Assembly: GCA_951406725.2 (NCBI GenBank)
Contig: OX597819.1
Location: 5,828,001 to 5,892,000 of the forward strand
DNA from: Octopus vulgaris
Lineage: Eukaryota
DNA length: 64,000 bases
Reading direction: 5' to 3'
This document shows, one piece after another, positions 35-63,910 of the stretch (position 1 is its first letter; each line of letters opens with the position of its first letter). Both the position numbers and the translations under genes were made by a program. The notes below the pieces were generated by a model, which saw only the letters and a list, made by a program, of their open reading frames with translations, did not search any database and was not told the origin of the DNA.

Positions 35-78
35 ACACCTGACGAAGGCTGGAGGGTATATCAGCCGGAACGTTGTGT
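35..78 (+). ncRNA. Minimal type I hammerhead motif (family H1), GAAA mutated to GGAA
   Basis: acac-CTGACGA-a-ggctg/cagcc-GGAA-cg-TT-gtgt; the same repeat recurs at 38262 (-) and 39565 (+). Confidence 0.65.
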
Positions 79-450
79 TAACAACAAACAAGATGCGGAC
101 AAATATCCGTCAAATGTAAACAATGTACATAATTCCTCATCTCTTAAATAAAGAACTGAAAAGATATGTTGTTTACTCTTTCTTGACAACACGTGCTATT
201 TTCAGGATGTTGACACAAGGTGCAGTCACGCACAAAATGACGGCTTCCAAATTCTCTTTCCCGACTGAGTGAAAAATGAACAAACTTTAAACCTCTATAA
301 CTTTTTAAAAACCTTTTTTCTGGTAAAAGTGTAATAACTCCAGCAATTCAGCATTAATATGTACCAAATTTTAAAATTTTCAATAGATTTTAATTTTTGA
401 AATGCTGGCAACCGAACCAAATATATCCATTTGCAGCCAAAATGAAAAGA

Positions 451-650
451 TCTACTACTACTACTACTACTACTACTACTACTACTACTACTACTACTAC
501 TACTACTACTACTACTACTACTACTACTACTACAACAACAACAACAACAACTACTACAACAACAACAACAACAACAACAACAACAACAACTACTACTACT
601 ACTACTACTACTACTACTACTACTACTACTACTACTACTACTACTACTAT
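451..650. repeat. (TAC)n/(AAC)n microsatellite
   Basis: Direct reading; source of the poly-T/S/V/Y ORFs. Confidence 0.98.
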
Positions 651-1223
651 ACACACGCAACGACACACTCACTTTAAAAGCAGGTATGTATTTTTAGTGG
701 CAAAATTCATAGAAAATGAGAACTGTATAACCAGTCTCAATAAAACTAATTCTAAATAGTAGAAAGATATGTAGAGTGGGCGGATGTAAAGCGTTTGCAC
801 CCTCTCCCTTCCACTTTTTTTTCCAAATATTTCTTCCGATTCCTGTTTTCGATATAGTAAGATTACGATTTTGCCAAAAAAGAAAAAAAAAAAACACGTC
901 TTCAAAATTTTAATTTCCCCTCTCTCAATTAGAAACATTTCCCCACATTCGCAATCTCTGTATTTTTCTACTCTCTTTACTCTTTTACGCTTTTACTTGT
1001 TTCAGTCTTTTGACTGCGGCCATGCTGGAGCACCGCATTTAATCGAGCAACTCGACCCCGGGACTTATTCTTTGTAAGCCCAGTTCTTATTCTATCGGTC
1101 TCTTTTGCCTAACCGCTAAGTAACGCGGACATAAACACACCAGCATCGGTTGTCAAGCAATGCTAGGGGGACAAACACACACACGCATATATATATATAT
1201 ATATATATATATATATATATATA

Positions 1224-2100
1224 TAATCAATATAGGGTGGCAAAAAATTTCGCAATGCCTAGTGGGAAAAAATTAAATAGTCATAGACCATTTATAAATT
1301 CAACAGCAAAATCAAGGAACGGCCATAATAGGCCATTCACCCACTAGAAATAACAGCCAAGGCTTCAACCGCAAAACAACATTAATTCCATAAACCAGGA
1401 GAAAATTAAAAAACATTTACCCTGTAATTCTTTATACGATGCACCGTTTCTTCAATTGTTTAATGGTAAACTAACCTGATTAAATTAAATCAAGCTAGTC
1501 TTCCATAGGCCGATAGAATCGTCAGTAAAGAACAGCCAGATCGGAGCAGATATTTACACGAGGCACTTCTACTACTGTCTCGGCAATATCTGACCTAAAA
1601 TTTTCAAATCATCGCACTCGCGCCAAATTTATCGGCAGCAAATATAAGTCGCCGATTCCATTACGGAATTAACCAGAAAATTCATAATTAATCAATATAG
1701 GGTGGCAAAAAATTTCGCAGAATTTTTTGCCACCAGCGGCCTAGTGGGAAAAAATTAAATAGTCATAGACCATTTATAAATTCAACAGCAAAATCAAGGA
1801 ACGGCCATAATAGGCCATACACCCACTAGAAATAACAGCCAAGGCTTCAACCGCAAAACAACATTAATTCCATAAACCAGGAGAAAATAAAAAAAATATT
1901 TACCCTGTAATTCTTTATACGATGCACCGTTTCTTCTATTGTTTAATGGTAAACTAACCTGATTAAATTAAATCAAGCTAGTCTTCCATAGGCCGATCTT
2001 CTCCTGGTTTATAGAATTAATGTTGTTTTGCGGTTGAAGCCTTGGCTGTTATTTCTAGTGGGTGAATGGCCTTTTATGGCCGTTCCTTGATTTTGCTGCT
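1224..2100 (-). mobile_element. Non-autonomous HHR-bearing Penelope-like/retrozyme-like element: 465 bp unit, partial tandem copy, inverted segment
   Basis: 1224-1688 is repeated from 1689 to 1997; 1998-2099 is an inverted copy of part of the unit; (TA)n on both sides; contains an HHR. Confidence 0.8.
1428..1532 (-). ncRNA. Type I hammerhead ribozyme with long stem II
   Basis: Minus strand: ttcttta-CTGACGA-ttc...gaa-GAAA-cggtgcatcg-TA-taaagaa; 7 bp stem I, GUA cleavage triplet. Confidence 0.85.
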
Positions 2101-3098
2101 ATATATATAAATATATATATATATATACATATATACGACCGGCTTCTTTCAGTTTCCGTCTACCAAATCCACTCACAAGGCTTTGGTTGGTCCGAGGCTA
2201 TAGTAGATGACTAGCCCAAGATGCCACGCAGTAGGACTGAACCCGGTACCATGTGGTTGGTAAACAAGCTACTTACTACACAGCCACTCCTGCGCCTACG
2301 GGGATTAAAAAAAATTTCGAAAAAAAGTGGGGAAGGTGAGAAATAAAAATTTTGAAAACGTGATTTTTGGCGTAATCTGTATTGAAAACATAGTATTCTG
2401 AAGAAATTACAGTTTACCACAGTAGCTGGCGAGCCACGCGACAAATGCCAATATCTCGACAGCAATTTAGTAATAACGAAACCAGAATGATAAATAAACG
2501 CCAAAGATAAGAAGAAACTCCCAAGTTAAACCATCTACAATAAGCTTTACTTTACTCAAGCACGATCTTCATTGATAGCAAGATAAGAGGGAATGTTAGG
2601 GTGTTAGTAAAGTGGACTCCGGGGAAAGTGGTGGGTGATGCTTTTATAGTTTGCTGTTATAGAAAACTGATCTCTCTACAAACAGAATGAAACAGCCGGC
2701 CTATACTTTTATTACAAGTAGTTTGTGATGGTGACCAACTCCACTTCACATAGATACTGTTATACAGAGTAGCGGGGTCGGAGAAGAGAGACGGCATCTG
2801 TTGGATTTTTGCTTCGCCCAGTATTTTCCCCTACTATACGCTTATTAGTGGTTATTTTCAACACTGCAATACACACAAGCTCCACGCTTCGACTTATTAT
2901 TTTAACTGGAAAAGGCAAAGATATTCATACACATCTTTACAAATGCGTGACTTCACACAAAGGTGGCAACATCGGAAAACTGGTTCACATACACAAACGT
3001 AAAGGGGTAAGTGTGAAATGTGTATGCGCGCGCGTGTATGTGTGTGTGTGTATTTATACTAACATACGTTCAGGCACGAGCGTGGATGTATGGTAAGA

Positions 3099-61118: not shown

Positions 61119-61906
61119 TGTAAATAGGAATATATGCGATGGAAATCTTACTGGAATTCTACAACACCTCCTGAAACAGAAATATATATATATATATATA
61201 TATATATATATATATATATATATATATATATATATATATATATATATATATATGTATATATATATGTTTGTGTGTGTGTTTGTGTGTAAGAATGTAAGAG
61301 AGTTAAGGCAATATGTGCAACTAACAAATTAACAAATTAAAGCTTTAGTCGAAAAGCGGCCGAAAAAATGCTTTAAAACTTAGCAAATTGAAATACAAGA
61401 AAAACTGACGTAAATGTAATTTGAAATGGCGGAGAAATTCTTTCGGTTTCTAAGGCTGAACTTGTTTTCACTACAGGCAAATGTATGAAGAATATAAGCA
61501 AATGAAAAAAGACGGACGTAAACTAAAAATGCATTAAAATATAAACTCAAATTACAACATACCCACATACACATACACACAGATAGACTCATATATATAT
61601 ATATATATATATATATATATATATATATATATACGTACATGTGCAAAAATATACTACATATGCATATATTTACACACATATAGACACATACGCGCGCACA
61701 CACGCACACACGCACATACATATTAGCATATATGTATGTATATATATATATATATATATATATATATATATATAATATTAATTAGAGACAAAACCACTAT
61801 TTTGCAAAACAAACAAGGAAAGACTTAATCAAGACTTATATATATACAAATATATATATATATATATATATATATATATATATATATATATATGTATATA
61901 TATATG

Positions 61907-62027
61907 TATTGGCAGGGCAAGACTGCTAGGTAGTCGGCCGTATGCTAGAAATAGATCACCAACGATCAAACTACAATTTCTATTTCTAGCATACGGCCGA
62001 CTACCTAGCAGTCTTGCCCTGCCAATA
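61907..62027. repeat. 49 bp perfect inverted repeat beside (TA)n
   Basis: 61907-61955 pairs with 61979-62027. Confidence 0.95.
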
Positions 62028-63101
62028 TACACATATATTAGAATTTTCTCTGACTTCTCAGATTTTTTGTATGCTGGACTACTGGTTTTAAATTGATATT
62101 AAAATTAATATTAATTTATCTCCTCATTAGTTATATATATATATATATATATATATATATATATATATATATATATATATATTTATATATATATTGACCT
62201 GCTCGCTTAGCCAGCGGGGTTGTGTCGTTCGAAGGCTAAAACAATGCGAATGCATTGTGACCAGCGATGTGTAACTACATCTGATGGACTGGTCGGTCAC
62301 GTGATCACGTGATATATATATATATATAAATATATATATATATATATATATACATACATTATAAAATATTTACATAAGTATAATTATATATATATACCTA
62401 TGTATATATATATATATATATATACATACATACATACACACGCATATATATATATATATATATATATATATATATATACGCACACACACGCACACTTACG
62501 CACACACACATATATGTATATTTGATATATATATATATATATATTGTGTGTATATATATTGTGTGTTGTTGAAAGACTATATAATTGAAATAGTTGAATA
62601 CGTAACCACAGTGTATATATTTCCTTCCATTTTTTGTTGTGTATTTCCCAAATTCACTCTACTGTGGTTACTGGAATATTCTGAGCCAAATATGCCCAAG
62701 GGTACAGAGAGCATTAAAATATTGGCCTCTATCTGAATTTCTAAAAAAAATCAGCCATTCACCATTGCCAGATATTCTGACCGGAATCAATTAATGTTAA
62801 TTCAATTTTGTATCTCAATCAAAATAGGAAATACTTTATGTATAATTAATTGCGAGGAAATGTGGATTCCATTGTTTTCACTCTATCTTTTTTAAGTAAA
62901 GCATTTTACTTGCAGTCTCAATCGTCCAGTTATTATTTGGTGATGTTGATCAACCCGGGAGCAAAATTTTATTGCAACAAAACAATGTTTTATTTTTTAT
63001 ATACGAATTGTAATTGTGTATGTGTGTGGACGTGTGTCTCTCTGTGCAAACTTTTATAGATACATGCGTACATGCATGCAAGCATACAGAGAAACACTAT
63101 G

Positions 63102-63650
63102 TACCTACCTACCTACCTACCTACCTACCTACCTACCTACCTACCTACCTACCTACCTACCTACCTACCTACCTAGCTACCTACCTACCTACCTACCTAA
63201 CTACCTACCTACCTAACTACCTACCTACCTACCTACCTACCTACCTACCTACCTACCTACCTTCCTACCTAGCCAGCTAGCTACCTACTTACATACGTAC
63301 CTACTTACCTACCTACCTACTTACCTACCTACCTACCTACCTACCTACCTACCTACCTACCTACCTACCTAGCCAGCTAGCTAGCTAGCTACCTACCTAC
63401 CAACCTAGCCAGCTAGGTACCTACTTATATACGTACCTACATACGTACGTACCTACCTACCTACCTACCTACCTACCAACCTACCTACCTACCTACCTAC
63501 CTACCTACCTACCTACCTAGCCAGCTAGCTACCTACTTACATACGTACCTACTTACCTACCTACCTACTTATCTACCTACCTACCTACCTACCTACCTAC
63601 CAACCTATCTACCTACCTACCTACCAACCCACCTACCTACATACCTACCT
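63102..63650. repeat. (TACC)n microsatellite
   Basis: Direct reading. Confidence 0.98.
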
Positions 63651-63838
63651 ACATATATACGAGGGGGTATATACGTATTATATACGTATGAGAGGGATGA
63701 CCACTACGTGGACAACCCTTATGCTAGAAGTAGATCCGCTATGATCTTACCACTAAGAAATGTTCTCAAGAAAAATTTAGCAAACACCAGAAACGTAATC
63801 GAGCAAGACAAAAGAAAAGCAATAAAAATATGGATTAC

Positions 63839-63910
63839 TCGCATACATGTTTCACTATTAATATATTACGTAATTTTACTTACGTAAATGTCCGTAGATC
63901 TTCGGTGTGA
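63839..63910 (-). ncRNA. Degenerate type I hammerhead, core U4>C
   Basis: tcaca-CCGAAGA-tcta..ttacgtaa/ttacgtaa..tag-t-GAAA-catg-TA-tgcga. Confidence 0.6.

Follow-up and report, generated by a model that had tools for sequence, protein, structure and literature searches.

The 17 hammerhead motifs found in a 64,000-nucleotide stretch of the Octopus vulgaris genome (contig OX597819.1, positions 5,828,001 to 5,892,000; the window) very probably lie at the 3′ ends of roughly 12 element families, of which three are coding Penelope-like elements (PLEs) and the others likely non-coding derivatives or short truncations, most copies being likely inert debris from target-primed insertion at microsatellites. 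That an invertebrate genome holds many hammerheads is already known, and the accessible text of earlier reports describes hammerheads in PLEs and PLE-derived retrozymes (PMC4209133, PMC7229834, bioRxiv 10.64898/2026.07.22.740005), among them minimal type I hammerheads carried by metazoan PLEs within their pseudo-LTRs (Cervera and de la Pena 2014, PMC4209133). What is new, at the level of sequence, is fixed core variation in natural families, including a G3:C8 pair in a coding PLE. The literature searched, which lay outside subscription journals, Repbase, Dfam and supplements, holds no description of octopus or cephalopod hammerheads, of A6U in hammerheads, of tRNA-headed PLE SINEs or of a natural G3:C8, which appears there only as an engineered rescue; the accessible text of PMC4209133 likewise yielded no G3–C8, A6U or cephalopod family.

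Hammerhead motifs in the window

A hammerhead-derived motif is present at all 17 coordinates of a preliminary description of the window, far above chance. A strict type I descriptor returned 7 motifs in the window, whereas none of 20 block dinucleotide shuffles gave any; a relaxed descriptor returned 10 against a mean of 0.3 in those shuffles. Over 1.03 Mb, a set composed of many loci picked as family members, the descriptor found 69 distinct motifs compared with 1 in each of 2 shuffles. Across the genome, the canonical minimal pattern matched 13,202 times against 9 for its reversed control, and exact hammerhead patterns alone gave 35,510 matches, compared with the roughly 2,000–9,000 motifs per genome in the accessible text of PMC4209133. 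Stems I, II and III around the core also exceed chance, and all of the stem III palindromes listed previously (CG, ATAT, GTAC, CATG, CGTACG, CCATGG and so on) were found. The identification of the 17 motifs as type I hammerhead sequences of PLE type with palindromic stem III is supported. Like the PLEs in the accessible text of PMC4209133, they have an extra base between positions 9 and 10.1 and a palindromic stem III, and occur mostly as single truncated copies and inverted pairs in many families per genome. Chance matches in AT-rich, repeat-rich DNA would agree with the Rfam search of the window, which gave no hammerhead at the gathering threshold and none among the best 150 of 370 matches at E ≤ 10 (those listed being microsatellites), and with the failure of 6 of the 17 copies against the strict descriptor. 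Nevertheless, the shuffles, the reversed-pattern controls (0–9 matches against thousands for true patterns) and the relatives of the failing copies at 39, 39569, 48523 and 51970, which regain the missing feature, leave this explanation with next to no probability.

The CUGANGA core reported for these sites held for most of them, but 4 of the 17 carry family-wide variants (U4C at 43183, G3:C8 at 44046, A6U at 60397 and U4C at 63905), and the canonical core is not the family rule in G, D, J and young F. The core C3 U4 G5 A6 N7 G8 A9 / G12 A13 A14 A15.1 / U16.1 H17 is exact in 11 of the 17 copies, 4 of which have a damaged stem or none usable. Overall, the core is intact and the stems are usable at seven sites, four sites have family-wide core changes and six are decayed. 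In only five are the core canonical and all three stems unbroken (C3 at 1525−, 16043+, 20952+, 25710+ and 54998+), and single stem mismatches accompany an intact core at 38301− and 47405−. Damage affects the core at 39 (A13G), 48523 (G17) and 51970 (one A of GAAA lost); among the stems, stem II is broken at 15005 and stem III at 39569, and stem I is unpaired at 50388. The earlier list lacked two motifs: a family H copy at 50420+ and, near 1920−, a second copy's 3′ half. A core-like match at 1638−, repeated in every B′ unit, has A6C and an extra base and was left uncounted.

The motifs fall into about 12 families or subfamilies in roughly 9 lineages, in line with the earlier estimate of at least seven. 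The window had also been called a dense community. Its density does exceed that of an arbitrary sample, but modestly, by about 1.5–3 times: relative to 200 kb made up of 20 arbitrarily placed 10-kb stretches, the lower estimate of the ratio is 1.5 (7 in 64 kb against 15 in 200 kb, p = 0.45) and the upper 3.1 (relaxed descriptor with one array counted once, p = 0.015). The 10 kb on either side of the window contain 0 motifs.

Coding Penelope-like elements

All of the motifs had been assigned to non-autonomous elements. This description suits the retrozyme-like families B′, E and B, but at least 4 of the 17 sites are the 3′ ends of coding PLEs (families F, G and I); by our placement 4 sites are such ends, 4 are probably non-coding, retrozyme-like monomers, 3 belong to a tRNA-headed family and 6 are unplaced. 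A 5′-truncated copy of family F at 42375..43370 (+), flanked by (TA)n on both sides and 99.8% identical to a full F unit, carries a GIY-YIG domain (PF01541) at 42381–42680 and, in its 3′ region, a U4C hammerhead at 43176–43224. An older copy at 47188..48051 (−; 88–90% identical) retains the end of the GIY-YIG frame and a U4 hammerhead at 47364–47412, and the motifs at 43183 and 47405 and the GIY-YIG remnant at 42381 all belong to one element. The family F protein contains RVT_1 plus GIY-YIG; all 150 scored matches are 100% identical, many as 775-aa open frames, tandem units are spaced 4,271 bp apart, and the hammerhead is present in 29 of 30 loci. An extra upstream frame of about 430 aa has no Pfam match. 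Family I is represented by a decayed, 5′-truncated copy at 50582..52009 (+), in which the hammerhead at 51970 (decayed, 51963–52009) belongs with the RT-end/GIY-YIG remnant at 50582–51235; of 20 loci of this family, 11 have the hammerhead downstream of the frame.

In F, G and I, RT followed by a C-terminal GIY-YIG lies upstream of the hammerhead-bearing end, with weak Pfam RT scores for G and I (E 0.003–0.07). This tie to RT–GIY-YIG frames was seen directly, as were the motifs, copy numbers and tandem or inverted layouts. The domain order, a CX4CxxC linker (read from translations) and the EN+ PLE hallmarks present in this set, namely partial tandem or inverted insertions, a tail and microsatellite targets such as (TA)n, resemble Neptune/Nematis-type EN+ PLEs (Craig et al. 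2021, PMC8557442), the comparison at clade level using the linker motif. The separate upstream frame of F and the G3:C8 of G are unlike those elements.

The GIY-YIG remnants, earlier cast as the mobilisers of the other elements, proved to be the hammerheads' own truncated bodies, and any role in mobilising the non-coding families would be putative. A special dense community of 17 non-autonomous self-cleaving retroelements, served by the window's two remnants, would accommodate B, B′ and E, as well as family A with its defined non-coding 5′ head; no PLE frame was found within 1.5 kb in 30 A or 20 B loci. We consider it very improbable, as the coding capacity of F, G and I refutes it for 4 of the 17 sites, the truncated remnants are unable to supply RT and the density is modest.

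For the six unplaced sites, in C, D (two sites), D′, H′ and J, no link to a frame or a closed monomer was found, and the short flanks upstream of families C, D, D′, H and J showed no coding frame. The C hammerhead (14998..15056, +) has an intact core and a broken stem II and belongs to an old family (72–89% identity); the 3,171-bp repeat in which this family sits proved to be segmentally duplicated and lacks a PLE frame. The D-type minimal hammerhead at 16036..16077 (+) is a copy with canonical A6, the family D hammerhead at 60390..60431 (+) has the family-wide A6U, and the D′ minimal hammerhead at 48490..48530 (−) has G17 in this copy. The J hammerhead at 63837..63912 (−; C3 at 63905) shows family-wide U4C and U10.1–U11.1. 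The decayed H′ hammerhead (50322..50395, −) is a diverged relative (73%) of family H, whose newly listed copy at 50413..50499 (+) has G8A while several relatives have a canonical core. Assignment of this copy to a U3:A8 family was ruled out, its relatives being C3:G8 with scattered decay.

Family G and the G3:C8 core

The family G insertion at 43929..44141 (−), a coding-PLE 3′ end with inverted arms, contains a hammerhead (44003–44053, −) with G3:C8 (G3 at 44046), U17, a 7-bp stem I, a 5-bp stem II and a palindromic stem III. G3:C8 occurs in 5,534 exact copies, against 0 with C3:G8 in the same flanks; 14 copies have both positions changed, none to C3:G8. Changes at G3 or C8 are all below 3% in contigs from four sequencing runs with four organism labels, no RNA run being among the runs listed for the family. 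G as a decayed copy was ruled out, since G3:C8 is fixed across the family. A broad G3:C8 pattern recovered mainly family G among the first 100 matches listed.

Four of five far-upstream G copies contain an RT and/or GIY-YIG frame, 47–64% identical to the I-clade protein. Endonuclease copies are 78–98% identical, their open frames reach 1,025 aa, and two of the copies sit about 1.0–1.1 kb upstream of G3:C8 cores. A non-autonomous status for G was ruled out once these longer copies showed frames. A PLE-protein search of 3-kb G loci had given hits in 2 of 60, both to the window's neighbouring F copy; short flanks can mislead, because G seemed non-coding in such loci and coding in longer copies. 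The family forms inverted pairs, and its 3′ end comes in two alternative forms, the short one in 43 cases and the long one in 39. The G 3′ end is similar to I-clade ends (4 of 5 copies, at most 21 of 500 shuffles) and shows no resemblance to those of 7 other families (at least 117 of 500 shuffles); one I-clade copy, L221, has no similarity to G. High G-versus-D and G-versus-F alignment scores came from (TA)n tails and were gone after trimming, and the idea that G ends a Naiad-like frame in locus L136 was ruled out, the G insertion there being a self-contained inverted pair.

G and I have a common stem layout with paired changes, a comparison of two families only. The outgroup family I has C3:G8 in 372 exact copies, and metagenome relatives have C3:G8 (L278 and L277, the latter read by eye) or U3:A8 (L279, L281). 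Parsimony over these few outgroups, rather than a tree, suggests that the change in G was towards G3:C8. U3–A8 has a precedent in Schistosoma in the accessible text of PMC4209133, and the accessible text of PMC11167929 describes partial rescue of a PLE hammerhead by the engineered double change C3G/G8C; engineered C3G/G8C rescue is also reported in PMC3884650. G carries the same double change as this partially active laboratory mutant, but fixed in a natural family of thousands of copies. G is a protein-coding family of more than 5,500 copies, and we consider it slightly more likely than not that, with its swapped core pair, it would still be self-cutting.

Probable non-coding families

Families B′, E and probably B look like non-autonomous retrozymes. 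The B′ insertion at 1225..2099 (−; approximate ends), flanked by (TA)n tracts, consists of an inverted piece and about 1.6 units of a 483-bp monomer, with an intact hammerhead at 1428–1532 (C3 at 1525); the family forms tandem units of 483–491 bp, each with a type I hammerhead. The intact E hammerhead at 25703..25796 (+) belongs to a young, probably non-coding family of 586-bp tandem units whose longest ATG frame is 34 aa, and an older E-type hammerhead, also intact, lies at 54991..55083 (+; 71% identical to the 25710 region). Family B occurs as wrap-around copies only; its insertion at 20738..21146 (+) has an inverted 5′ arm (20738–20875) and an intact hammerhead (20945–21025, +) with a 12-nt palindromic stem III. 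Tandem units of about 480–590 bp, probably non-coding and with one hammerhead each, are shared with non-LTR retrozymes, for which a PLE origin has been proposed (PMC7229834; bioRxiv 10.64898/2026.07.22.740005), whereas the PLE-type inversions, (TA)n insertion, long stem II and 8–12-nt palindromes are not.

A natural E tandem dimer folds in silico as a double hammerhead, with inter-copy stem III at about 0.9 and stem I at 0.99, and a B′ dimer has a weak stem II (at most 0.16). In a natural G tandem dimer, with its A–U-only palindrome, the inter-copy stem III has a probability of 0.0; it likewise did not form in silico in a canonical array from the random sample.

Family A appears to have a non-coding 5′ head that is tRNA-like and contains motifs resembling A and B boxes (by eye against the general consensus). 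An (AAT)n spacer and a minimal hammerhead follow, and the family also shows inverted insertions of PLE type. In the window, its hammerheads lie at 32..81 (+; decayed, A13G), at 38259..38308 (−; core intact, inside a LINE remnant) and at 39562..39611 (+; stem III broken, immediately after an (AAT)n tract). Membership in the adjacent LINE was ruled out, as other copies have different neighbours. ARAGORN called 0 of 12 loci by default and gave 1 weak call of 2 at a relaxed threshold. Of eight heads in loci that had not been picked for A, five led to the body within 130 nt and two more within 300 nt, and one did not. The Schistosoma Sm-alpha repeat is a tRNA-like repeat with a hammerhead; family A, likened by description only, shares the tRNA-like head joined to a type I hammerhead, and differs in its spacer, minimal hammerhead and inverted insertions.

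Core variation and cleavage

The tertiary 3–8 pair is kept as C:G, U:A or G:C in one PLE clade, and U4C, A6U and A9C are fixed in other families, as read from genomic copies. The family D pattern matches 14,594 times with a base other than A6 and 140 times with A6, with U6 in 98 of the first 100 matches listed. U4C characterizes two families, F (1,194 against 614 in the young subfamily) and J (10 of 12 copies, including the window's), and A9C occurs in 3 of 3 young I-clade loci. These three changes hit conserved core positions yet reach thousands of copies, a counterpoint to our preferred reading. A possible, though less probable, account keeps the PLE identity and departs from our reading only at the cutting step: the fold would be a protein-binding or reverse-transcription signal, cleavage would be dispensable and the variants, G3:C8 included, would be dead or nearly so. 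The prevalence of A6U, U4C and A9C and the failure of the G dimer to fold in silico agree with it, as do the in vitro results in the accessible text of PMC11167929, in which hammerhead mutants of a lizard PLE insert normally, without need of cleavage, and no reads end at the cut site. Against it, the 3–8 pair is altered on both sides in three ways within one clade, as expected if selection acts on a catalytic fold; D varies freely at position 7 but keeps its stems and GAAA; and U4C and U10.1–U11.1 retain some activity in nature, according to the accessible text of PMC3088659. Among frog retrozyme dimers, 8 of 9 did not cut (bioRxiv 10.64898/2026.07.22.740005). We read this patterned core evolution as selection that would favour a folded, probably slowly cutting ribozyme over fast cleavage.

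In the cycle consistent with this reading, a tandem copy would be transcribed, and two hammerheads would pair through palindromic stem III, possibly with the element's protein, to release unit-length RNA. The PLE RT–GIY-YIG protein would then nick (TA)n or similar DNA and reverse transcribe from the 3′ end, and 5′ truncation and inversion would leave the hammerhead-bearing 3′ end at thousands of places. Circles, and a mobiliser for the non-coding families, would also form part of this putative cycle. The accessible texts of PMC4209133, PMC8557442 and PMC11167929 propose that PLE hammerheads serve tandem-precursor processing, reflect parasitism or need not cleave. The octopus families offer naturally occurring alleles in matched sets, whose copy numbers can serve as a read-out; among them are the U4 and C4 subfamilies of a single young element with intact frames. 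Why nearly all PLEs keep a hammerhead thereby becomes directly testable. We give even odds to the full composite: a recently mobile coding octopus PLE running on a natural G3:C8, in a clade that has sampled C:G, U:A and G:C, with neighbours fixed for A6U, U4C and A9C and a tRNA-headed, Penelope-dependent SINE. The genome would then be a natural mutational scan of the hammerhead contacts required for PLE transposition. At least 21,000 motifs in this genome (5,534 + 14,594 + 1,194) escape standard CUGANGA descriptors, and hammerhead censuses, along with claims of PLE groups without hammerheads, may therefore undercount.

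Hammerheads of the window and their core variants

The hammerheads of the window are real and mostly of a known kind. The strict form of a type I descriptor permitting C:G, U:A or G:C at the tertiary 3-8 core pair recovered 7 motifs, where 20 block shuffles gave 0; its relaxed form recovered 10, where block shuffles gave a mean of 0.3. This shuffle control upholds the motifs of the preliminary description, and every palindrome named there was found on reading the sites. The list of 17 nevertheless needs correction: only 5 sites combine a canonical core with all three stems intact, in 2 others the core is intact but the stems show single mismatches, 4 have a core altered throughout their family, and the remaining 6 have damage specific to the window copy. 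An Rfam search of the window, a microsatellite-rich part of a 2.8-Gb genome, gave 0 matches at the gathering threshold, and at E ≤ 10 no hammerhead stood among the 150 matches listed of 370. Positions 14999-15200 and approximately 25 other places belong to a very common short interspersed repeat with no relation to hammerheads.

In earlier work, Penelope-like elements (PLEs) carry minimal hammerheads of low activity, including U3-A8 forms (PMC4209133); retrozymes originate from PLE ends, with 1 of 9 dimers cutting (bioRxiv 10.64898/2026.07.22.740005); and U3-A8, A6C, U4C and U10.1-U11.1 are reported (PMC3088659). G3-C8 does not occur in the text of PMC3088659, figure 5 aside, and our literature search returned only engineered G3:C8 cases; supplements, Repbase and Dfam lay outside its scope and could contain these families. 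What appears new is a G3:C8 pair fixed in a coding, high-copy PLE, together with other fixed core changes, all of which are worth testing.

The swapped pair belongs to family G (site 44046). Exact G3:C8 22-mers number 5,534 genome-wide (control, 0), and the 14 copies of the G core with both positions 3 and 8 changed include 0 with C3:G8. Contigs of four runs with four organism labels contained no G-core variant at 3% or above; neighbouring CpG sites did vary. The nearest relative of G within the genome, family I, has C3:G8 (372 exact copies). Among metagenome loci of the G/I protein clade, 4 of 11 have a motif beside the frame, with C3:G8 in L278 and, read by eye, L277, and U3:A8 in L279 and L281. 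Because these relatives carry C3:G8 or U3:A8, G3:C8 is likely the derived state. The L277 motif (4973-5010), hammerhead-like and behind a related PLE frame, has U15.1-A16.1 by eye, described as a rare hammerhead variant in PMC3088659. U3:A8 hammerheads also occur in two further families of the genome (L037:7652-8152 and L039:8996).

Other families carry core changes of their own. Family D has 14,594 non-A6 against 140 A6 copies, with position 7 free; U4C outnumbers the alternative in family F (1,194 versus 614) and occurs in 10 of 12 copies of family J, the U4C motifs of both having U10.1-U11.1; and A9C is present in 3 of 3 young I-clade loci. A second, unrelated A6U motif with intact stems lies at L208:1623, so A6U may have multiple origins. 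That the 3-8 pair survived two double changes speaks for selection on the active fold; that A6U, U4C and A9C have spread speaks against a need for fast cleavage.

Coding families

Family G was at first viewed as non-coding from short loci, a reading ruled out by the frames in longer copies. Short loci gave a PLE match in 2 of 60, both being the F copy that neighbours G in the window. Tracing longer copies through an AC-rich upstream region revealed reverse transcriptase (RT) and/or GIY-YIG frames in 4 of 5, with 47-64% identity to the I-clade protein. Many copies of the G endonuclease are 92-96% identical, with open frames of up to 1,025 aa, and two lie approximately 1.0-1.1 kb upstream of listed G3:C8 cores (C1:53454130- and C1:56909633+). 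G insertions form inverted pairs, and their 3′ end takes one of two alternative forms (short 43, long 39); many end at (TA)n. G also occurs as a 16-copy array with a period of approximately 170 bp.

Family F (sites 43183 and 47405) has full units that hold a 775-aa RVT_1 plus GIY-YIG frame and recur every 4,271 bp. Window positions 42375-43370 match them at 99.8% identity over 996 bases, and 150 of 150 scored protein matches were identical. Full units contain two frames (at L131, 5860-7221 and 3626-5950, minus strand) that overlap by approximately 90 nt. The upstream one lacks a Pfam match and encodes approximately 430 aa counted from its first Met; the other is the RT-endonuclease frame, which has no early Met. 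A and T runs near the overlap suggest ribosomal frameshifting. Family I (site 51970) retains an RT/GIY-YIG remnant at 50582-51235, and such a remnant is followed by a hammerhead of the same family in 11 of 20 loci. A separate RT frame without a Pfam match (L136:2992-3960, minus strand) resembles those of Naiad-type PLEs. For the protein of one element, the closest named homologue (93%) bears the label Octopus vulgaris.

Probably non-coding families

The proposal that the motifs mark non-autonomous elements fits at most 7 of 11 assignable sites and fails at those of F, G and I, with their RT/GIY-YIG frames. Three families are retrozyme-like: B′ (site 1525; 483-bp unit, with arrays both tandem and inverted; 1,261 first-look candidates), E (site 25710 and an older one at 54998; 586-bp unit in identical copies, longest ATG frame 34 aa; 1,766 first-look candidates) and B (site 20952; wrap-around copies; 1,041 first-look candidates), whose stem III has one paired change (L150). 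Every B′ unit includes a second, imperfect hammerhead-like match with A6C and an extra base, 113 bases upstream of the main motif (window 1595-1645, minus strand). Folded in silico, the natural E dimer is predicted to form a double hammerhead, with probabilities of 0.76-0.9 for the inter-copy stem III, 0.92-0.99 for stem I and 0.77 for stem II, and the B′ dimer a stem III of approximately 1.0 with a weak stem II; inter-copy stem III was absent in silico for the G dimer and one canonical array. Outside the 11 assignable sites, families C, D, D′, H′ and J account for the other 6 and are multi-copy or kin of multi-copy families.

Family A (sites 39, 38301 and 39569; 2,739 candidates) runs from a tRNA-like head through (AAT)n to the hammerhead. 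In loci selected for A, 15 of 40 bodies have a head no more than 300 nt away; among 8 heads from loci not so selected, 5 lead to a body at up to 130 nt and a further 2 do so at up to 300 nt, but the remaining head does not. ARAGORN with default settings called no tRNA in 12 loci. In the window, A sits inside and behind the tail of a LINE remnant (37660-39515) with zf-RVT matches, an R4/Dong-like end of the restriction-like endonuclease type and an (AAT)n terminus. The same joining of LINE end and A recurs in L064, and a different upstream partner is common to L053 and L058; these repeated junctions suggest recurring chimeras via (AAT)n. An A head at L141:8982-9053 lies approximately 950 bases upstream of the first hammerhead of the window, with other sequence between, and the two are possibly one element split by insertion. 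Another short interspersed repeat with a tRNA-like head begins near 49708.

Mobilization and genomic density

The elements would most likely spread by PLE target-primed reverse transcription starting at the 3′ end; truncated and inverted insertions would then scatter the end that bears the hammerhead. Non-coding units would borrow PLE protein from putative partners and, if expressed and able to cleave, dimeric forms would probably trim tandem precursors, slowly or with protein assistance.

Twenty arbitrarily placed 10-kb stretches contained 15 strict motifs, 7 of them from one array with a period of approximately 359 bp. Compared with this sample, motif density in the window is higher by a factor of 1.5 (p = 0.45) to 3.1 (p = 0.015), according to how motifs are counted; the descriptor found 0 motifs in the 20 kb flanking it. 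Six exact patterns together account for 35,510 copies across the genome, and the sample extrapolates to approximately 126,000 motifs (95% range 58,000-239,000, the array counted once). The community first described as dense is a rich stretch, yet an ordinary one for a genome full of hammerheads. A tandem and inverted array at L031:2307-4513, of a canonical family with a period of approximately 359 bp that is not in the window, is a typical retrozyme candidate.
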